Of a DNA stretch of 64,000 bases, positions 39,270 through 50,744 are shown piece after piece. Source of the DNA: Candidatus Heimdallarchaeota archaeon (lineage in GTDB: Archaea; Asgardarchaeota; Heimdallarchaeia; Heimdallarchaeales; Heimdallarchaeaceae); the NCBI GenBank assembly GCA_021399345.1, contig JAAFKI010000094.1:32001-96000 (forward strand). The letters run 5' to 3'. Below the pieces are notes generated by a model. The model worked only from the letters and a program-made list of their open reading frames with translations, ran no database searches and was not told the DNA's origin. Made by a program: the position numbers and the translations under genes. Position 1 is the first letter of the stretch, and each line of letters begins with the position of its first letter.

Positions 39270-41108
39270 ATGTATTCTGTAGTGTGCGGATTTAGAAAAA
39301 AAATGATGATTTTGGTTTCGATTTGTTTAATACTGAGTATAATTATTAGTGTTAATGGTGAAGAGATAAATTTTTCGAGTCTTCTAACAAATCATCAGGA
39401 TTCATACCAATTATCTTCTCTAGCACCTCATAGTGCAATTATAATTGAAAATGATGATAATTTCACAGATTATGGTTTTGATGGAAATGGTTCTGAGAGT
39501 AATCCATACATAATTGAAAATTACAACATAACAGCTACAGGTTTAAGTGGTATATATGTAGGATTTACAGAGAAATACTTTGAGATTAGGAATTGTTTAA
39601 TTGATAGCTCTTCATTAGGGATAAGATTCGAGTATGTAACTTCAGGAACTGGAGCAATTTATAACAATACATTTGTGATTGGTCATGCTGATGGGATTCA
39701 AATTTTGAATTCAAATAACGTAACCATATCAAACAATACGTGTATTGGGAGATTTCTTGACGAGGGAGATAATGGAGGTATAGTTATAGCTAGATCTCAA
39801 TATTGTTTAATAGAAAATAATTCTGCATATAATAAAGGTATAAGGTTAATAGATTCATTTCATTGTATTGTAAGAAATAACAGTTTATACAACTGTGGAT
39901 TATCTTTTCTTCGACCAACATATGCTCAGTGTTTTAGTCATACAATTGAGAATAATACTGTTAATGGAAAACAATTGGGGTATTTTATTGATCAAAATAG
40001 TATTCACATTCAAAATTCATCTTTTGGTCAAATTGTACTTGTAAATTGTGATAACTCAATTATAGAAAACCAAAATATCTCAAAAACATTTAATGGGATT
40101 TCATTATTTTATACAGGAAATAGTTTCATTGGCAATAATACATGTAATAATAATATCGGGGATGGGATATATCTTTTCGAATCATCTGTAAACATTGTTC
40201 AAAACAACACATGTAAAGATAATCTTGAAAATGGTATTTTCTTTCATTTTTCAATCTGGAACACTGCATCAAAAAATCAGTTAATTAGCAATGGTCATCA
40301 TGGAATTTATCTAGTTTCAGCATCAGATTCATCTGTTTATGACAATTTGTGTATTTCGAATTCATGGACAGGAATATATGGATTTTATGCTAGTTCTGCG
40401 TCCATAGAAAACAATCTATGTGTTGGTAGTGCATTATATGGAATAAGTTTGTATAATTCACCATATTCGACAATATTGAATAACACCTGCTTATCAATCA
40501 GTAATCAAGGAATATTTTTACGAGCATCTGATGAAACCGATATAGCATTAAACAATGTAACAAATAACGGTGCAAGTGGTATTGAAGTTCAAATTAGTAG
40601 ATATATTCATATCTACAACAATTCTTGTTACAACAATAAATATGGTATAAGTGTTTGGGGGACAGATAGAATCATAATAGAAGCCAATTATATGATAAAT
40701 AATAGCTTAAATGGAATACAGATTTATGATTCGAGTAAGTGTATTTTAACCTATAATCGTTTAGAAAATAATACTGAATATGGCGTTTATCTGTTCGATT
40801 CTTCAAGTTGTACGATCCATCACAATAATTTTGTAAACAACAATGAATCAACTTCTCAAGCTTACGATAGTGGAGGTTTATCTAACACTTGGTATGATAT
40901 TTATACAGATGAAGGCAATTATTGGTCTGACCATCTAGGCTCAGGTTCCTATTTTATTGACGGAGATTCTAGTTCCTTTGATCCTTATCCATTGGAAAGC
41001 CAAAGTATCCCTCAATTAAATGAATTTAGAATAATTTTGATTATTCCTTTTATTGTATTATCTGCTATTGTTATCTTATTAGTTAGAAAGAAGAAAAAAA
41101 CATATTGA
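39270..41108 (+). CDS. cell-surface right-handed beta-helix (NosD/CASH-repeat) protein with C-terminal TM anchor
   Basis: Signal peptide, GNGSESNPYIIEN, many Asn-rich GI-x-L repeats, GNYWSD...DPYPL, and a TM plus RKKKK tail. Confidence 0.85.
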   Translation: MYSVVCGFRKKMMILVSICLILSIIISVNGEEINFSSLLTNHQDSYQLSSLAPHSAIIIENDDNFTDYGFDGNGSESNPYIIENYNITATGLSGIYVGFTEKYFEIRNCLIDSSSLGIRFEYVTSGTGAIYNNTFVIGHADGIQILNSNNVTISNNTCIGRFLDEGDNGGIVIARSQYCLIENNSAYNKGIRLIDSFHCIVRNNSLYNCGLSFLRPTYAQCFSHTIENNTVNGKQLGYFIDQNSIHIQNSSFGQIVLVNCDNSIIENQNISKTFNGISLFYTGNSFIGNNTCNNNIGDGIYLFESSVNIVQNNTCKDNLENGIFFHFSIWNTASKNQLISNGHHGIYLVSASDSSVYDNLCISNSWTGIYGFYASSASIENNLCVGSALYGISLYNSPYSTILNNTCLSISNQGIFLRASDETDIALNNVTNNGASGIEVQISRYIHIYNNSCYNNKYGISVWGTDRIIIEANYMINNSLNGIQIYDSSKCILTYNRLENNTEYGVYLFDSSSCTIHHNNFVNNNESTSQAYDSGGLSNTWYDIYTDEGNYWSDHLGSGSYFIDGDSSSFDPYPLESQSIPQLNEFRIILIIPFIVLSAIVILLVRKKKKTY

Positions 41109-41135
41109 TACGAAACAAACATGTTGATACGAAAC
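41098..41135 (+). repeat. 19-bp tandem duplication spanning a stop codon
   Basis: aaacatattgatacgaaac followed by aaacatgttgatacgaaac (18/19 identical). Confidence 0.7.
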
Positions 41136-41209
41136 GTTCCTAGGCTTGAAAATAATTGGTACTTACAACTAGCTAATAGCTAGATCTTTTCCTTTTTAGC
41201 AAATTATAT

Positions 41210-41809
41210 ATGTTCATTCTCACTATAGTACAATTCATGAAGCCTATAATTAAAAGATCTTTATCAATTTCTTTGTTATTGCTATGCATGTTATCATTAT
41301 TCTTAACTTCAGTTCAAGCCGCATCAGAAACATTCCATTATGATACTGCCTCAGGTACTCTATATGATATCATCGCTACCATTGACTCAACTAAGGTAGA
41401 AGATGGAAACAATACTTTTCAAGTTGAGATAAAAATAACAGATTTAGGACCTAATTCAGTTTATATTCACGAAATAAAAGTTTTCTTCAGAATAGACCCC
41501 TACATCACAGATTATGGATCAACTACAGATAATCTGACAGCTAATGGTATGTCCAGCATTGCAACTTTGACATTTGAATATAACTCAACTTGGGGAAATG
41601 TTGAATTAGACATTTTGATTAAATTCCAAGAAGAAGTCTATCATGGGGAAGATTTGATAACTCATTACTATGAAACAAATTGGATTTATATATTCACTCT
41701 AAAATCAGCAGCTGGAGCTAGCTGGTCATCAATATCACTAATTGTTGCGGTTGTTTCTTTAGGAAGTGGATGGTATATTCTAACTAAAAAACTTAAAATT
41801 AGAGCATAA
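41210..41809 (+). CDS. secreted, C-terminally anchored hypothetical protein (beta-rich ectodomain)
   Basis: Signal peptide ending VQA, and C-terminal TM plus KKLKIR. Confidence 0.75.
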   Translation: MFILTIVQFMKPIIKRSLSISLLLLCMLSLFLTSVQAASETFHYDTASGTLYDIIATIDSTKVEDGNNTFQVEIKITDLGPNSVYIHEIKVFFRIDPYITDYGSTTDNLTANGMSSIATLTFEYNSTWGNVELDILIKFQEEVYHGEDLITHYYETNWIYIFTLKSAAGASWSSISLIVAVVSLGSGWYILTKKLKIRA

Positions 41810-41820
41810 TAATTCTGCTT

Positions 41821-42789
41821 CTATTTTCCATTTTTTAAAATGAAATTAACTAAATTTGCTATTATAGAAGAATCAGATTCTGGATAGATAGTTATTTCTT
41901 CAGCTCTTTCTCTTCCTTTGACATTCAATTCAAGACGACCTTCGGAATTAACTGTACATGATTCTATTGCAAAAATAGGTACAGCATAGGTATCCTTACC
42001 AGGTATCTTGAGGAAAAATCGTTTATTAGATATCCATAATGTACCTTTTTCACCAAAAACGGTACCTTCAGCATGATGAATGGAATCTAAATAAAGAATG
42101 TTTTCTCCTTCAAGCTGTTGAATGTCAAGCATTTCTGTTGTAAGGGATCGATTGACTGAAGATAAAGCCATCAACTGATCTATTGTAGCTGCAAATAGAG
42201 GATCTTCAATTGAAACAAACTGAACTCTATCCACTTTATCAATGAGAATAATCATTCTATGACGTGCAAAGGCTACTAAAGCGTCAGATATTCCTCCCAC
42301 TCTATAGAAATTGTGAGAACTTTCAATTCCATCAACTTTAACCTTATTACCTGTAAAGAATTTCTTAAACAAATTATCATCTTTTGCGAAAATATAAACA
42401 AAATCCTCAGTATTGAGTTTTTCAGTAAAGTTACCAGATGAATAAAAACCATACTTATGTGCGCTACCAGCTGTCTCATAAAACTGTTCTAATGCATCAG
42501 AAACATTCGTAGACGCTACTGTAAACTGTTTAAGAAATTCCTTAAATCTCTTGATAGGTTTGTCTGCAAAGTATATAGCGGGTTTTTTATTTTCATCTTT
42601 ATACACAAAGCCTCTATTAGAGAGATCTTCTAAAACACCATAGATTTTTGCTTGAGGTATTTTTGTTTCTTCTGCTAGTTTAGGTGCAGTAGCACTACCC
42701 ATACGTACTATTTCTAAGAATGCTCTAGATTCATATTCTGATAATCCAAACAGCTTAAGATTATCTACTAAATCGCTTTGTTTTGACAT
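41821..42789 (-). CDS. TrmB-family transcriptional regulator with C-terminal PH/GRAM-like domain
   Basis: The N-terminal LKLFGLSEYESRAF...IPQAKIYGVLEDLSNRGFV is a TrmB wHTH. The C-terminal EGENILY...GTLWISNKRFFL...VPIFAIESC looks PH-like. Confidence 0.82.
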   Translation of the reverse strand: MSKQSDLVDNLKLFGLSEYESRAFLEIVRMGSATAPKLAEETKIPQAKIYGVLEDLSNRGFVYKDENKKPAIYFADKPIKRFKEFLKQFTVASTNVSDALEQFYETAGSAHKYGFYSSGNFTEKLNTEDFVYIFAKDDNLFKKFFTGNKVKVDGIESSHNFYRVGGISDALVAFARHRMIILIDKVDRVQFVSIEDPLFAATIDQLMALSSVNRSLTTEMLDIQQLEGENILYLDSIHHAEGTVFGEKGTLWISNKRFFLKIPGKDTYAVPIFAIESCTVNSEGRLELNVKGRERAEEITIYPESDSSIIANLVNFILKNGK

Positions 42790-42834
42790 TCTAATTCTTC
42801 TTAGTTGTATAAGTTTATAAAGTTTGGTATTTAA

Positions 42835-42961
42835 TTACTACCGCGGTGGTTACAAAAGCAAATATTTATATATGTCTGCGATTAACTACTGTAGTAGTAA
42901 CAAATAATTCGAGAGTTATAGTCCTCTAAGGGCAAACAAAAATTAACTATCTCGGTGGTAA
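42835..42961. promoter_or_regulatory. three 18-bp imperfect palindromes (TWACTAY-N4-GTRGTWA) around a TATA box; candidate TrmB-family operators
   Basis: TTACTACCGCGGTGGTTA at 42835-42852, TAACTACTGTAGTAGTAA at 42883-42900 and TAACTATCTCGGTGGTAA at 42944-42961. TTTATATA at 42865-42872. Confidence 0.7.
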
Positions 42962-42964
42962 AAA

Positions 42965-44371
42965 ATGGCAAAAACACGAATTTCATATCTGAACGGTCTG
43001 GCGATTGTTTGTATAGTCTTCATCAGTCTCTCAGTCGTTCCTGTTGGTGTAATTGCAGGTGTCGCGTTTAGTGAAGGTGGTTATAACAACCATGAATTCA
43101 CTGTCGATCCTGAAGCAAATTATACATTCTTACTGAACATTGAAGGAGATCTAGTCTTCTATTATGATATCTATGAATATCCTTTAAACACAAATGATTA
43201 CGAGATTCATTTAGTGGATGAGACTGATTATTTAGATTGGAACTCTTCTGTAGATCCTCGTCCTGACAATGAACTTGTAATATATGGTGCAGATGAGAAC
43301 TTTAAGTGGATAAGAACTTATGGTCAAGATAAATATCTCATATTCTACAATGATGATAATGCAACCAGCTTAACTGTTGAACTTCATTACTTTACAGCTG
43401 ATAGAGCTCTAATTATTGGTGGTTTAGCTGTAGGACTTATATTATCTACATTTACAACTATTCTAGCTTTACATACAGTATTTTATCTTCTACGAATACT
43501 TATCTTCATACCCATTTTTGGTTTTAGATATACAAATGGTGATGATAGAAGAAAGGGTAGAGACAGAAGATATAGTTATGACTATAGGTCACCTCCTGCA
43601 TCCCCAGCCGCTCCAGCAGCTCGTGCTGTTAAAGCTGCTCCAGCTGCCAAAGGTGTAAAAGCTGCACCTGCAGCCCCAGCTATTCCAGCTATTAGAAGAA
43701 CTCCTACTGCTCCTATTAAAAGAGGTCCAGCTATCCAAAACATCTCTTCAACTTATGTTGTTGCTGGTCAAGCTAAAGAATATCCCAAAAGTGAACTCAA
43801 GAGATTCTTAGTTAAAACATGGGATTCAACTTCTATAGCTGAAAGAGTCTTAGTAGTTATAGCCTTATTCTTCCTATTGACTGGAGCTGTTACAGGAACT
43901 TGGTATATAATTGTAGTATTTCCAATTACACTACTAGGCATATCTATCATAGTCTATTTTGCAGGTCGCAATAGACGAGAAAAACTCATTAGATTAGTTG
44001 AAAGTCACAAAGCAATCTACGTTACTGAAGCTGCAAGAATTCTAAGATCAGCTTCTGAAGTAATTCGCATGGATGCTTGGAAGATTATCAACCTTGGCCT
44101 TGGAACTATTGGTTTCGATACACAAAACAACATCTTATTTGACGCATCTCAAATTGATCCAAGTGAACTCCAAGATGTTTCTCCAGAAGCCAAGAAAATT
44201 CACGATGAGTTAGTAACTGAAGCTGCTGAAAAAGTAGATGTAAAAGAAGAAAAGAAAGTTGAGGAAGTTGTTGAAGGCGTAGAAGTTAAATGCCCATTCT
44301 GTGACAGCAATAACCCCCCTGACTCTTCATTCTGCATAAAATGTGGTGCAAGCTTAAAGCCTGCAAAATAA
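42965..44371 (+). CDS. multi-domain membrane protein: ectodomain, TM, Pro/Ala/Lys-rich linker, TM hairpin, wHTH-like segment, zinc ribbon
   Basis: Signal/TM, an acidic ectodomain, PAAPAARAVKAAPAAKGVKAAPAAPA, then IYVTEAARILRS...IINLGLG, and CPFC...CIKC. Confidence 0.8.
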   Translation: MAKTRISYLNGLAIVCIVFISLSVVPVGVIAGVAFSEGGYNNHEFTVDPEANYTFLLNIEGDLVFYYDIYEYPLNTNDYEIHLVDETDYLDWNSSVDPRPDNELVIYGADENFKWIRTYGQDKYLIFYNDDNATSLTVELHYFTADRALIIGGLAVGLILSTFTTILALHTVFYLLRILIFIPIFGFRYTNGDDRRKGRDRRYSYDYRSPPASPAAPAARAVKAAPAAKGVKAAPAAPAIPAIRRTPTAPIKRGPAIQNISSTYVVAGQAKEYPKSELKRFLVKTWDSTSIAERVLVVIALFFLLTGAVTGTWYIIVVFPITLLGISIIVYFAGRNRREKLIRLVESHKAIYVTEAARILRSASEVIRMDAWKIINLGLGTIGFDTQNNILFDASQIDPSELQDVSPEAKKIHDELVTEAAEKVDVKEEKKVEEVVEGVEVKCPFCDSNNPPDSSFCIKCGASLKPAK

Positions 44372-44414: not shown

Positions 44415-46214
44415 TTATCTTATATGTGGGTTTGGACAGTTAATGTAATCTTCATCTAGAACTCGTTCTATAGACTCCATAAATGCACTGTCAACCAATT
44501 TACCCTTTAGGTTATAATATCTCCACCAAATACAGGTCCTCATTTTTTCTATTATTTTTTCTTCGATAAATTTCTCTTTTAATCCTCTATTTACCATTAA
44601 TTCTTTATAATTATCTATTTCTTCCTCAGTTTCAAAGATATAGAAACTTGAAAGATCTGAATTCAAAATCTTATTTTTCACCGAAAATAACCATTCTTCA
44701 AATCTTATTTTCTCATCTTCAGACATATCTTCTACATTTGGTGCCACGTATGTTACTCCATACCCCCTAGCCTTTTCACCTTCTTCGTCTTTCATCACTT
44801 TATAATCTGTTCTATCTCTTAACCAATCAAAGTAATTAATTGACATCTTACCTGAGACACCAATGCACATGTACTGGGTACTTCTCCACAAGGACCTTTG
44901 ATAGAGATGATCATGTCCAAAAATTGCAGCACTAACACCATAATCATCAAACAAGGGTGTCAAACAGGATTGTGCAAGAGCATCAGAATTATTTCTAGCT
45001 CTTCCAAAGTAACCAATTGTGAAGATCGCTGAATGTAGGAAAACAATACAAAATTGAGGTCCTTGTTCTTCTATCGCTTTTCTTCTCCATTCTTTTAGCT
45101 CTTCATTCAACCAATTCCATTGTCTACTCTCACAAGCGATACTTTCATTTCCCCAATTCAAACCAATTGAATCCAGATGAATCATGTGAACATTACCTAC
45201 ATCTTGAGAGAAATAAGCTCCTCCTTTCGTTCTTGGAGTTTGAATGAACATGTGAAAGTGTTTCTGAGTTCTTGCTTTACCACCAAACCACGAAGCACGA
45301 CCCCAACCGCCATTGAAATAATCATGATTGCCTATTGTAGGAGTAAAAGGTATTCTTGCGAAATTTACATTACCACATGTAAAAAGATCTGCCCAATATT
45401 CATGATATGAGCCATTATCAACATTATCACCACTAGTTGTGAAAACTTGATAGCCTTTGTCAAAAGTATAATCTAACTCTTTGACATGAATGTGCTTCAT
45501 TAAACGTTCTAGTCTAGGATTTACCTTCGCTTTGAACCCCACAACTTTTCCTCTTTTGAATCTTGCTTTTGATCCTCCATGCAAATCTGATGTAGAAACA
45601 AAAAAGACTGGTTGTTTACCTGATTGAACACCAGCTGTGAACTCCCTTATTTTAGATGCACCTATTAATTCTTCATCTTTGTTGTAACATTCTATTCTAT
45701 AATGATAATTCTTGTTTTCAGCTAGATTTTCAATCAAACCCAAAAATAGCTGAGGTGCTGATGATACTGGATGGTAGGAGAAGGATGAAGAATGTTTCAT
45801 AGGAATTTCTGCTAATTCACAGAAATCATCGTTAAATAATCGGATAACGCATCTACCTTTAGGATTACTAAGGAAAGGTTTCTTCTTGTTTACATCAACA
45901 ACTTCCTTCACTCTATTAGTTTTAAGAAAACCATAATCAAGATATACTGAAACTAGAATCTTTGAAGCATCATTAGTGATTCTCATCATATAATACTTAT
46001 CGATAATGAATTTTACAGGAGGAATACTTTCATCTTCTTTCTCAGTTGTTGTATAAGGTTTATATTTAACCTCATCAAAATCTTCAAGTTCTAAAGGATA
46101 GAAATTCTCTTCTTCTGCTAATCTTCTGCGAATAGTTTCACGAATTTTTATTCTATATTTTGTAGAAGGTATCCTGTCTTCAGGAGGTGAGATTTTTTGT
46201 TTTTCTATAGACAT
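44415..46214 (-). CDS. calcineurin-like metallophosphoesterase (purple-acid-phosphatase-like architecture)
   Basis: SDLHG, SGDNVD, IGNHDY, VFLH and GHDHLYQR, preceded by an FN3-like YHYRIE segment. Confidence 0.85.
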   Translation of the reverse strand: MSIEKQKISPPEDRIPSTKYRIKIRETIRRRLAEEENFYPLELEDFDEVKYKPYTTTEKEDESIPPVKFIIDKYYMMRITNDASKILVSVYLDYGFLKTNRVKEVVDVNKKKPFLSNPKGRCVIRLFNDDFCELAEIPMKHSSSFSYHPVSSAPQLFLGLIENLAENKNYHYRIECYNKDEELIGASKIREFTAGVQSGKQPVFFVSTSDLHGGSKARFKRGKVVGFKAKVNPRLERLMKHIHVKELDYTFDKGYQVFTTSGDNVDNGSYHEYWADLFTCGNVNFARIPFTPTIGNHDYFNGGWGRASWFGGKARTQKHFHMFIQTPRTKGGAYFSQDVGNVHMIHLDSIGLNWGNESIACESRQWNWLNEELKEWRRKAIEEQGPQFCIVFLHSAIFTIGYFGRARNNSDALAQSCLTPLFDDYGVSAAIFGHDHLYQRSLWRSTQYMCIGVSGKMSINYFDWLRDRTDYKVMKDEEGEKARGYGVTYVAPNVEDMSEDEKIRFEEWLFSVKNKILNSDLSSFYIFETEEEIDNYKELMVNRGLKEKFIEEKIIEKMRTCIWWRYYNLKGKLVDSAFMESIERVLDEDYINCPNPHIR

Positions 46215-46264
46215 CTTAATTACGAATTCTAATTCAGTCTTTAAAATTTTACTACAAAGGTACG

Positions 46265-46876
46265 TTATTTCTTAGCAAAATGACATATATCATTAACTAA
46301 ATCGATTGAAAACTTTTCTTTTCCTTCTGATTCAATGTAATCAATGATATTAATACTGCAATTGTATTGTTTGATAGTATCAAATACTAACTTTGATGCA
46401 TCTAGAATTTTAGCTATTATTGAACGAATACACCCTCCATGTGTGACGATCAGAACATAGTCTTTTTCTTTATTTTCACGAGCTATGTTTCTAAACTCTT
46501 CCCATACTCTGTTCATGAAATCTTCTGCCTGTTCCCCATTGTGTTTAGTCATCAAGTCATCAAATTCTTTAAGGGAATCCATCTCATCCAGCAGTTCAGA
46601 AATACCCACTCCATCAAGATCTCCAAGAGTATGCTCTCGGAGTTTATCGGTATAATTAACAGGAAGATTCAATTCCGAACTGATAATTACAGCTGTTTCA
46701 GCAGCTCTAACTAAATCTGAGCTGTAGATTACTTGTATTCCTTTTCCCTTCAATTCTTCAGCTAAAATCTTTGCTTGATTTTTACCAGTTTCATTTAGAG
46801 GAGTAGGTAAATGACCCATAATTATACGATTCTTATTGTGATCAGTCTCTCCATGTCTAACAAGGAATATTCTCAT
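46265..46876 (-). CDS. histidine phosphatase (phosphoglycerate mutase) family protein
   Basis: LVRHGET, SSDLVRAAET and VTHGGCI. Confidence 0.92.
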   Translation of the reverse strand: MRIFLVRHGETDHNKNRIIMGHLPTPLNETGKNQAKILAEELKGKGIQVIYSSDLVRAAETAVIISSELNLPVNYTDKLREHTLGDLDGVGISELLDEMDSLKEFDDLMTKHNGEQAEDFMNRVWEEFRNIARENKEKDYVLIVTHGGCIRSIIAKILDASKLVFDTIKQYNCSINIIDYIESEGKEKFSIDLVNDICHFAKK

Positions 46877-46922
46877 GAAGGAAAAAAATGAAGTCTATTA
46901 AAAAAGGTTAGGGAAGGGAGTT

Positions 46923-47933
46923 TTATCTTACAACTCTAGTCAGTTTGGCTCCACATCTAGTACATGAGTAAACTCCCTTCGGAATATCTGCTCCGCAAGT
47001 AGGACATGTTTTGATTTTGCTTTCTGTGCTCGCATCAAGTTTCCTAAGAGGTTTTAAAAGCAATCCATCTTCAGTCATTGTCCAAGTATACAGTAAAGAC
47101 CCTCTAAGTTCTGAAATAGCTTTTTCAGGTAATGTTATTCTGTTTTGATTGTCTATAACCAGAAATCTAGAGCTATCCAAATCAGTCAAATCAATGTCCT
47201 GTAGATGCTCTCCAATAAGAATGCCATCTCTAATTTCTAAGGTTCTATCTGAGAAATCCCCAACTATAGGATCATGACTGCAGATTAAATAGGAAGTACC
47301 CATATCCTCTTTCAATTCCTTGAAAAGCTCAAGAATTTGAGTTGAGGTTTCAGTATCAACGTTTCCCGTTGGCTCATCAGCAAAAATCAGCCTAGGATTA
47401 TTTGCCAACGCTCTAGCTATTGAGACTCTTTGCTGTTCACCGCCTGAGATTCTTTTTGGAGTGTGGGTTCTTCTATGCCAAATACCTAAAATTTCCATCA
47501 GTTCTTTTACTCTTTGTTTTCTTCTTGAACGATTGAGATTGACTAACCTCATTGGCATCTCTATATTCTTTTCTGCGCTCAAATATGGAATTAGATTTTG
47601 TTCTTGGAAAACATATCCTATATTGTGTCTTCTATATTCGAATTGTTTCTCTTCAGCTAGTTTAGTTATATCTGTGCCATCAGAATAAAAAATCTGACCA
47701 GCAGAAGGTTTGAGCATTCCACCTAGAGATAATAATAAGGTGCTTTTTCCTGATCCCGAAGGGCCAATTATCCCCAAAATTTCACTTTTCTTGATGTCAA
47801 AACTTACACCTTTTAGAGCAACAACCTTGTTCTGATGTTCCAGACCGTATACATGATAGATATCAATGGCCTGTAAGGCTAAATCTTCAGGAAGTGGTTC
47901 CATTTGGAATGTTTTTGTTTTATCACTGTACAT
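46923..47933 (-). CDS. ABC ATPase (LolD/MacB type) with C-terminal AbrB-like segment and zinc ribbon
   Basis: GPSGSGKST, ISGGEQQRV and ADEPTGN, then VIDNQNRITLP and CPTC...CTRC. Confidence 0.9.
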   Translation of the reverse strand: MYSDKTKTFQMEPLPEDLALQAIDIYHVYGLEHQNKVVALKGVSFDIKKSEILGIIGPSGSGKSTLLLSLGGMLKPSAGQIFYSDGTDITKLAEEKQFEYRRHNIGYVFQEQNLIPYLSAEKNIEMPMRLVNLNRSRRKQRVKELMEILGIWHRRTHTPKRISGGEQQRVSIARALANNPRLIFADEPTGNVDTETSTQILELFKELKEDMGTSYLICSHDPIVGDFSDRTLEIRDGILIGEHLQDIDLTDLDSSRFLVIDNQNRITLPEKAISELRGSLLYTWTMTEDGLLLKPLRKLDASTESKIKTCPTCGADIPKGVYSCTRCGAKLTRVVR

Positions 47934-47942
47934 AAAATCACC

Positions 47943-50744
47943 TCAAAATGCTCTCATTTCCTCCACAACTTTTGTTTTTGAAGCTATAATAGCAGGAATT
48001 AATGTTGCAAGTATTATGATCACAAAAGAACCAATTATTGTAGCTATTAGAATTCCAGGTGGGAATATCAGTAGTCTGTTAAATGAAGAAGAACTAAAGA
48101 CATCAAAAAATCCATTGAACTGGTACCCTAAAATGAAACCAATAAAAGTACCAAACAGAGTAGCAAATAGTGCCATAGATATTACTTCACTTAGGACCAA
48201 TTTGATTAATTGACCCCGCGAAGCCCCTTCTGATATCAGTACAGCAAATTCTTTCTTCCGTTGATTAACAATCATAAACATGAAAATTGAAACACCGATT
48301 ACAATGGCAATGAGTGAGATAAGATAGTTTATTGTTAATAATCCAGGAAATCCAAAACGTAATCCTTCTCGTTGTCTAATTTCTGCTAATTCTTCTTCAA
48401 AGGATTGAGAGTAAACAATCCAATCAAATTGTGAATCAAACTCAAAAGCAAGATTTTCTTCAACTGGATCAACTTCAGGTTTCAAATTGATTATTGCTCT
48501 AGTAATTTCATATGTATAAGGAGCATAGGTGAAAATAAACTGCTTATCGACTAGTAGGGTAAAAACGAAATCAAATTCAATGAAATCAAAAATTTCACCT
48601 AAAGATCCTAATCCTAAGTCCATTATCTCTCCAGGAGCATGATCTACAATTATTGTTGCTTCTGCTGTATACTTAGTCTGATTGAAAATTGTAAATTCAA
48701 AAGTAGGATCATTTTGTATATCTAATGTTCTTGCTGTCTCTACTCCAACACCTACATTTCTAAGAGGATTATTTTGAAGAGTCTGCAGACCTTCCTTCCA
48801 TTCAGGATAATCTTCTATTGAGTCTTTGTGCCATATTGCATTATTTCCATATTCCGTCAAATCTACTCCATAGCATACAACTGGCGTTGACCCAACATAG
48901 AAAAATGAATAATAAATAGGAATTATAGTTTCTATTTTATCCTCAAAACCAACAAAATCAGTAGGTGACAAAGTTTGGTATCCACCTAAGATATCTACTC
49001 TCATATCACCTCCAATAGTAAATTCAGCTCTACGAATCAATTCAGCTGAACCAGTTTCACCTTGAATAACTGCAAACACCCCTAATGAAACAGATAAACA
49101 GAGTAAAACAGTCATTCTTGGAAAGTTTTGATGTCTGCGAGATAAACTTCCTTTAAGTAAGACTCCGATGTCTTTGAAGATCTTAACAAGAACCTTATCT
49201 AATTTTTCAGGTACCTTGGTTGATAATCTACTAACTATAGAAGCTCCTCCATACCAAAGCAATATTGGAGCGAATATTTGAAGTAAAATAACAGCAAAAC
49301 CAAAAGAAACATTTGGTCTTGTATTTTCAATAAATGTTAGGAGAACACCAATTAATCCTACCATGAAGAACAAAACATCACCATATACTGCTTTAAACCA
49401 CTTTTTCTTTTCTTTTTCAACAGTTTTAGCGATAGCTACTTCTTGTTGAATGAAGTTATTTGTTTTCTTTCTGGTTGTGAAAAAGAGAATTCCTAAAGTT
49501 ACAATAAGGGTTGTTAAAATAGTCCAAGGTTTAATGTTCAAAGATGAGTAAGCATTAGTAATAGTTGGAAAATCTATGCCCATAAACTGATAAGTAGACA
49601 GTACCATTGCTGCACCGAATGTACCAAGAGAAATCCCTATAGCTTCCCCTAATAATGCAATTAAGATAACCTCAGTATATATCATACTCCGTATCTGTTT
49701 TGGACTAGCTCCCTGAGCCTTTAGAACAGAAATTTCAAATTTTCTCTCTCTTAAAGCTAAATCTGCTCCTAAACTGATAAGAATAATTGATAAAACAATA
49801 GCAGGAATATACAAAACAGTATCAATTAACTGCATTGTGATAATCAACCCTTGGTATGCGAACAACGTGCCAGAGATTAAGTTTCTACCATCCAGATTGT
49901 GAATTTGTTCCTTCCTGTTCAAAACTATGTTAATATACTCATTTAAATCAAGAAGATTGTTTAGAGGGAATTGAGTTAGATCTAATTTTGTAGGAAGCTG
50001 CCATAATTTGTTAACGGTTAAATTTCCAATAATACTGGAATTAAAATTATCACTGCTAACAATTAAGAAATCATCATCTAGTAGAAGACCAGGTTGGAAG
50101 AATCCTCTTACTGTCAGATTTAACGTTGTTGAAATTATAATGACTTCATTAGCATCAACAGTTTTATTCAACCCAAAAATAAAAGCTAGAGTATCGTTTA
50201 ATTGTACACCTAACTTCTTGTATGTACCAATAGGTAGTAGGATACTATTACTCTGAAGATTGTTTTCACCAGCAACAACATTAATCTTTTCAACTATTGA
50301 ATGATTAAGTGAGGATGAATCAACAATCAATGGTTCAAAGGAAGGTTGTTCTACATTAAAGCCAGCATATTCAGAAAAATTAAAATCGGGAGTGAAATAA
50401 GAATGATATCGATTATCTCTGTTTGTTATATCATAGTGAAAACGTCTCCCATAGGTAACAATACAATCCTCAAATTCTATTTCTTGAGAGAGTAAATCTG
50501 CTAATTCTGGGAGAGTGCCAACCAAATTCGTTTCTATTAGAGGTCTGAAAGTTACTTCAGCTTCAACATTTTCTATCATATCTTGAACAGTAATTGTGTT
50601 AATTATTGAACCATAGAAGAATATGCTTGAAAAAATAGCAGCTCCTAGAATCATACCAGCACCTATCGAGATACTTCTTCTTCGGTTTGAGTACATGGAT
50701 TTAAAAGAAAGTCCAATGAATGAGAAGAATTTTGGACGCTTCAT
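47943..50744 (-). CDS. FtsX/MacB-like ABC permease (two FtsX repeats)
   Basis: ERKFEISVLKAQGAS and QRKKEFAVLISEGAS repeats, with large extracellular loops. Confidence 0.9.
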   Translation of the reverse strand: MKRPKFFSFIGLSFKSMYSNRRRSISIGAGMILGAAIFSSIFFYGSIINTITVQDMIENVEAEVTFRPLIETNLVGTLPELADLLSQEIEFEDCIVTYGRRFHYDITNRDNRYHSYFTPDFNFSEYAGFNVEQPSFEPLIVDSSSLNHSIVEKINVVAGENNLQSNSILLPIGTYKKLGVQLNDTLAFIFGLNKTVDANEVIIISTTLNLTVRGFFQPGLLLDDDFLIVSSDNFNSSIIGNLTVNKLWQLPTKLDLTQFPLNNLLDLNEYINIVLNRKEQIHNLDGRNLISGTLFAYQGLIITMQLIDTVLYIPAIVLSIILISLGADLALRERKFEISVLKAQGASPKQIRSMIYTEVILIALLGEAIGISLGTFGAAMVLSTYQFMGIDFPTITNAYSSLNIKPWTILTTLIVTLGILFFTTRKKTNNFIQQEVAIAKTVEKEKKKWFKAVYGDVLFFMVGLIGVLLTFIENTRPNVSFGFAVILLQIFAPILLWYGGASIVSRLSTKVPEKLDKVLVKIFKDIGVLLKGSLSRRHQNFPRMTVLLCLSVSLGVFAVIQGETGSAELIRRAEFTIGGDMRVDILGGYQTLSPTDFVGFEDKIETIIPIYYSFFYVGSTPVVCYGVDLTEYGNNAIWHKDSIEDYPEWKEGLQTLQNNPLRNVGVGVETARTLDIQNDPTFEFTIFNQTKYTAEATIIVDHAPGEIMDLGLGSLGEIFDFIEFDFVFTLLVDKQFIFTYAPYTYEITRAIINLKPEVDPVEENLAFEFDSQFDWIVYSQSFEEELAEIRQREGLRFGFPGLLTINYLISLIAIVIGVSIFMFMIVNQRKKEFAVLISEGASRGQLIKLVLSEVISMALFATLFGTFIGFILGYQFNGFFDVFSSSSFNRLLIFPPGILIATIIGSFVIIILATLIPAIIASKTKVVEEMRAF

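Follow-up and report, generated by a model that had tools for sequence, protein, structure and literature searches.

A TrmB-family regulator with a C-terminal PH-superfold domain and its linked membrane protein, a candidate membrane-signal/repressor pair in Heimdallarchaeia

Membrane-to-gene signalling is little known in Asgard archaea, and the Heimdall archaea are close relatives of eukaryotes. Among the closest described systems, TrmB-family regulators bind DNA through a winged helix in which Tyr50 is a contact residue, and the six sugar contacts of TrmB sit in its second effector subdomain (PMC4158304). In Bacillus subtilis, the autorepressor SdpR is linked to the membrane protein SdpI, and its signal-induced sequestration derepresses the membrane gene (PMC2910880). 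The HAAS-PadR dyad, in which a membrane sensor with a variable domain is always coupled to a winged helix-turn-helix factor, has been proposed as an alternative to two-component systems (PMC11237479). In addition, the prokaryotic PH superfold (bPH/PHb) has been tied to envelope stress and protein-protein contacts (PMC2817789).

The window analysed here is a stretch of 64,000 nucleotides from a Candidatus Heimdallarchaeota archaeon (assembly GCA_021399345.1, contig JAAFKI010000094.1, positions 32,001 to 96,000). A preliminary description, made from the letters alone, had proposed that a transcription factor encoded there may be sequestered at or released from the membrane, possibly by the product of a divergent gene. 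Both open reading frames were found where it had placed them, and with slightly less than even confidence we read the locus as a dedicated membrane-signal/repressor pair. The literature searched, in which few subscription journals were covered, gave no paper on a TrmB-PH fusion, on this pair or on a Heimdallarchaeum TrmB, in line with the earlier remark that no description was known; as far as the searchable literature shows, both the architecture and the pair are undescribed.

The three-domain regulator

The regulator gene and its domains are as follows.

41821..42789, minus strand: TrmB-PH regulator gene, 322 aa (open reading frame; homologues found)
42520..42789, minus strand: TrmB winged-helix DNA-binding domain, residues 1-90, with invariant Tyr50 (PF01978; TrmBL2 5bpi)
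42166..42447, minus strand: middle domain, residues 115-208, resembling a shortened first effector subdomain of TrmBL2/TrmB (TrmBL2 alignment)
41824..42156, minus strand: PH-superfold domain, residues 212-322, net charge -5 (structure match, Atlas features)

The TrmB winged helix recognized in the preliminary description was borne out by PF01978 (TrmB HTH), which matched residues 11-75 (E 1e-17, 64 bits against a cut-off of 25.6), and by the superposition on TrmBL2 5bpi (Z 12.9, rmsd 1.5, 82 residues); Tyr50 was invariant among homologues, so that the winged helix and contact tyrosine characteristic of the family are both present. The predicted model has three domains, of which the winged helix had been recognized and the C-terminal PH superfold suspected earlier, and the middle domain had been missed. 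Because residues 3-210, taken as one query on which this reading rests, aligned with TrmBL2 2-257 (177 residues, with a high rmsd that fits a differing domain orientation), the middle part most probably represents a first effector subdomain in shortened form. Against the NCBIfam equivalogs TrmB, TrmBL1 and TrmBL2, the regulator reached 24-44 bits, below cut-offs of 500-650, and PF11495 was neither among its matches nor one of the 25 families most common in 22 members. The second effector subdomain of the sugar-sensing TrmB and TrmBL1, a beta-barrel with Gly320/Glu326, was not found in the regulator, and since a PH fold replaces this subdomain with its sugar contacts, TrmB-type sugar sensing appears to have been lost. 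The regulator is a TrmB-family member, yet no sugar-sensing TrmB, TrmBL1 or TrmBL2; an Atlas shape search gave no full-length match.

The C-terminus had been suspected of a PH/GRAM fold, with the proviso that it should not model as a standard TrmB effector domain, and the structure search revealed a PH superfold instead of a sugar barrel. In the predicted model, residues 212-322 form the seven-stranded sandwich closed by a C-terminal helix that characterizes this superfold (pLDDT 77-92 over 221-320), with 4tyz as the best match (Z 12.2, rmsd 2.3, 101 residues), and Lam6 PH-like at Z 11.6; about 48 of the top 50 structure matches were PH-like (PH, PTB, GRAM, GLUE and FERM). The Atlas feature score for bPH_3/GRAM was 0.91 with a low shared count, and the bPH_3 profile matched one distant homologue under the cut-off (E 0.065). 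The domain might bind membrane lipids directly, needing no protein partner, and lipid-associated folds (Lam6, Vps36 GLUE and myotubularin GRAM) are indeed among its top matches; however, peptide-binding PTB and FERM domains match equally well, and function does not follow from a common fold. All 21 copies of the domain are acidic (net charge -1 to -7), and their alignment holds no basic strand 1-2 motif, so that phosphoinositide-type binding is unlikely and the direct-lipid explanation as a whole is very improbable. The acidity would instead favour binding to a protein.

The membrane partner and its linkage to the regulator

The divergent gene encodes a membrane protein with the following parts.

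42965..44371, plus strand: membrane partner gene, 468 aa (open reading frame, predicted model)
43082..43399, plus strand: acidic jelly-roll ectodomain, residues 40-145, between TM1 and TM2, GOLD/PPC-like, hypervariable
43526..43834, plus strand: basic Pro/Ala-rich cytoplasmic linker, residues 188-290, net charge +14
43835..44149, plus strand: TM3-TM4 hairpin and cytoplasmic PCI-like winged helix, residues 291-395
44291..44368, plus strand: C-terminal four-cysteine zinc ribbon (PF13240, E 2.6e-5)

The ectodomain, Pro/Ala linker, winged helix-like segment and zinc ribbon had all been anticipated, and the earlier count of three to four transmembrane helices was settled at four by the model and hydropathy, in the order TM1, ectodomain, long TM2, linker, TM hairpin, winged helix and zinc ribbon. 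The ectodomain (net charge -19, three sequons) was matched by the GPR180 N-domain (Z 11.0) and p24 GOLD domains (Z 10.2-10.6) and, slightly below these, by PPC and collagen-binding domains (Z 8.6-9.5). With a mean identity of 34%, it is the most variable region of the partner, and its two allele types assort independently of regulator type among close relatives. In the mosaic partners L040, L041 and L012, the ectodomain is 44% identical to that of the window and the C-terminal half more than 90%, a pattern that suggests ectodomain swapping between paralogues. Residues 188-250 of the linker have pLDDT under 50. The winged helix was matched by known winged helices at Z 8-9; as for a PCI domain, Atlas leads were under 0.9 and PF01399 gave no match. 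A P(S/T)AP late-domain motif was also considered and rejected, being present in 3/32 partners and lying within the Pro/Ala tract. The zinc ribbon is the most conserved segment of either protein (85% mean identity vs 60% for the regulator HTH). Against a dedicated pair, ribbons of this family turn up in twelve or more further proteins of the window's genome.

Named homologues of both proteins came from Heimdallarchaeaceae, including Ca. Heimdallarchaeum aukensis. A distribution restricted to this family, as given by the first searches, was overturned by iterated profiles, which found the two genes side by side at 46 loci distributed among five families within the class Heimdallarchaeia; the preliminary description would have fallen had the genes not been neighbours in related genomes, and on this point it stands. 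The orientation is divergent in two families and a single operon in three. In the window's own family, the divergent pair was found at 24 loci in 23 genomes, and in family f7, which belongs to another order, distant regulators detected through the PH profile are divergent from a short partner in 9/9 cases, this partner consisting of TM, ectodomain, TM and zinc ribbon with neither TM hairpin nor winged helix. Same-strand operons of partner followed by regulator were found at one locus of f2, three of f3 and nine of f4 (total 13, one being cut by a contig end), and the PH fold of these f2-f4 regulators is given by profile matches, some from profiles built including such regulators. Six f4 partners have no ectodomain, so that a signal common to all partners cannot be a ligand from outside. 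The linkage persists through rearrangement. Among folded cytoplasmic elements, the zinc ribbon is the sole one that every partner type has. Neither gene was detected in four own-family and three f7 genomes, all incomplete, and these profiles did not find the pair in f5, f6 or about 317 other genomes of the phylum, a result that does not imply absence. Since the PH superfold was confirmed and the gene neighbourhood holds in five families, functional coupling of regulator and partner is well supported by genomic comparison.

The surroundings of the pair were also inspected. On the minus strand at 44415-50744, the window encodes a metallophosphoesterase, a histidine phosphatase, an ABC ATPase with a C-terminal zinc ribbon and an FtsX-type permease; the phosphoesterase gene is convergent on the partner in 18/21 own-family loci and is not so placed in the other families examined. 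Directly downstream of the regulator (39270-41809 of the window, and L036, L038 and L041-L043) lie variable insertions with beta-helix surface-protein and long TPR-like genes. The window's genome (G000) carries a second pair (contig C66:1-1881), counted among the 24 family loci, with a regulator 67% identical to the first, the other ectodomain allele and its own operators.

Predicted operators and the wider regulon

The 175 bp between the two open reading frames hold the following elements.

42814..42821, minus strand: probable TATA box of the regulator gene, with short or no leader (conserved in relatives)
42836..42851, no strand: predicted operator 1, between both TATA boxes (conserved)
42865..42872, plus strand: probable TATA box for the partner gene, preceded by purine-rich, BRE-like bases
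42884..42899, no strand: predicted operator 2, 11 bp beyond the TATA box and covering the expected start of transcription
42945..42960, no strand: predicted operator 3, overlapping the GGTG ribosome-binding site, lineage-limited

The three related palindromes noted earlier are present at 42836, 42884 and 42945, although the third overlaps the ribosome-binding site and is confined to a sub-lineage, the family norm being one or two operators. Three were seen vs 0.05 expected by shuffling, with a test pattern derived from these same sites, and independent support therefore lies in their conservation in relatives. Operator 1 is the genome's best matrix match (score 24.6). The consensus is TACYAC-N4-GTRGTA, and among 31 family genomes 27 of the 30 strict-consensus sites lie at the partner promoter, vs 11 for a reversed control pattern. 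The predicted operator follows the partner TATA box by 3-14 bp in 20/21 loci, and in f7 and f3 by about 3-4 bp, covering or abutting the expected start; in the one own-family genome where the partner is unlinked, its TATA box is still followed, at 9 bp, by a perfect operator. The operator matrix gave no site before f4 partners, which weighs against the proposed circuit. Judged computationally, the location near BRE, TATA and start is that of TrmB-family operators, and following the partner TATA box it is, as far as site placement tells, a repressor's position. Very probably, TACYAC-N4-GTRGTA is the binding site of a TrmB-PH dimer, which would repress the partner gene by occluding the start of transcription there. 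The regulator may also tune its own promoter. In a single lineage (L006:195-308), variant operators with a CACCAC half-site adjoin a regulator with an altered recognition helix, which would count for the pairing of regulator and operator and is a candidate natural specificity switch.

In the window's own genome, convincing intergenic sites were found only in the two pair spacers, and a wide regulon was rejected there, the other matrix matches being coding or at chance level; the TFB and Toastrack-like promoters of this genome have no site. In three other own-family genera and eight f7 genomes, the same TFB paralogue has a site 11-22 bp after its TATA box, at a score reached by about 0.3% of promoters. 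A site is likewise present, in three own-family and five f7 genomes, at a zinc-ribbon/TM gene whose Toastrack match is weak (E 0.007, under the cut-off). These other apparent targets resemble parts of envelope-stress systems (PMC11237479). Single strong sites were also seen before an ABC exporter gene in one genome of genus g3 (L138:1032), before a gene in f2 for a probable FtsX-type permease (L185:3391) and, in f3, upstream of a TFB gene's TATA box (L188:3072). In one complete genome (L054:3928-3984 and L093), the zinc-ribbon/Toastrack-like gene is broken, the operator and the initial 19 codons being separated from the rest by about 7 kb.

A 265-aa TrmB paralogue of f7 (L165, L169, L171 and L203-L205), situated between coiled-coil and small GTPase genes, has the motif across its start codon. 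Both there and before TFB, the motif persists in f7 genomes without detected TrmB-PH (64-86% complete), so that the f7 sites may have another reader. The wider regulon might be read, at least in f7, by such a paralogue of similar specificity, an explanation that concerns the regulon only and is compatible with any reading of the pair itself. We consider it fairly unlikely, given that the f7 absences may be assembly gaps and that the sole motif-bearing TrmB gene found in the own family is TrmB-PH, yet three genera there have the TFB site.

Proposed mechanism and relation to known systems

Computation establishes the domain make-up, the linkage and the placement of the operators. In the mechanism that we tentatively prefer beyond this, the PH fold would have exchanged sugar sensing for protein binding and would dock on the cytoplasmic tail of the partner, for which we see an even chance. 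The zinc ribbon, which is kept in every partner type, would be the best docking candidate. More weakly, a membrane or envelope signal might cause the partner to capture the repressor at the membrane, which would derepress the partner in a positive feedback as for SdpI-SdpR and, in lineages with a wider regulon, the TFB paralogue and the zinc-ribbon/Toastrack-like gene as well. Physical sequestration is plausible from genomic context, whereas a complete receptor-to-gene pathway, in which a transcription factor gating an alternative TFB would be docked through its PH/PTB-like domain to the zinc-ribbon tail, is doubtful. Complex prediction for regulator 108-322 with partner 334-468 gave 0.25 against a mark of 0.32, which is evidence neither way.

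The partner could also be merely the main target of the regulator, with the PH or middle domain sensing another protein, a peptide or a small molecule. Linkage and operator position are equally expected of such a pair, the middle domain is conserved much like the HTH (57% vs 60% mean identity) and could hold a ligand, and the free assortment of regulator types and partner alleles gives no sign of allele-matched co-evolution among close relatives. However, conservation is higher in the zinc-ribbon tail than in the DNA-binding domain, the tail has been retained through every rearrangement of the partner, and the apparent regulon in the window's genus is the pair alone, as expected of a closed sensing loop; we hold the main-target explanation to be somewhat unlikely. 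The opposite polarity, in which the partner holds the regulator at rest until a conformational change or proteolysis releases it to repress the partner and maybe activate its own gene from operator 1, draws on the position of operator 1 upstream of both TATA boxes, which is compatible with activation, and on the ability of TrmB proteins both to repress and to activate (PMC4158304). Nevertheless, no protease is linked in any locus examined, and because the sites follow the TATA box, release would switch off the TFB paralogue and Toastrack-like gene, which fits a stress output less well; this polarity is improbable.

If docking by the zinc ribbon and PH domain is real, prokaryotes closely related to eukaryotes would be using a PH fold to recognize a receptor tail, and membrane state would be linked to TFB choice, placing a general-factor cascade under membrane control. 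If it is false, what remains is a TrmB architecture not described before, whose operator occurs across the class. The locus offers a well-delimited system of two genes, whose soluble domains are small and for which an operator and targets have been predicted. The 'eukaryote-like signalling logic' of the preliminary description was overstated, because PH folds are widespread in prokaryotes (PMC2817789), membrane sequestration has a bacterial precedent in SdpI-SdpR (PMC2910880), and a similar dyad, HAAS-PadR, has been proposed (PMC11237479).

With TrmB, TrmBL1, Tgr and VNG1451C, the regulator shares the winged helix with Tyr50, the dimer helix, a middle part like the first effector subdomain and a palindromic operator near the TATA box, and its operator resembles the Halobacterium TrmB motif TACT-N7-8-GAGTA (PMC4158304). 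It differs from this sugar-sensing group in having a PH fold in place of the second subdomain, and its apparent targets are membrane and transcription genes rather than sugar metabolism. TrmBL2 (5bpd, 5bqt) is the best sequence and structure match for residues 3-210; however, TrmBL2 is chromatin-like, binds widely and has no extra domain, whereas the regulator appears sequence-specific and adds a PH domain. The bPH/PHb domains are standalone or membrane-associated, with no helix-turn-helix fusion reported in the accessible part of that survey (PMC2817789), while the regulator is such a fusion.

SdpR-SdpI provides a model of how the pair might work without being homologous to it. SdpR is an ArsR-type repressor and the regulator is of TrmB type; SdpI is a multi-TM protein of different architecture to which the partner has no match, and sequestration, shown in that system (PMC2910880), is inferred here. 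The HAAS-PadR dyad and the related Toastrack/Lia systems share with this locus the membrane sensor with a variable domain coupled to a winged helix-turn-helix factor, as well as Toastrack and zinc-ribbon partners (PMC11237479). The window's pair is distinguished from HAAS-PadR by its three-domain TrmB regulator and by a partner whose N-terminus is a TM helix; moreover, the docking module of HAAS-PadR is the HAAS domain on the membrane protein, whereas here it would be a PH fold on the regulator together with a zinc ribbon on the membrane protein.
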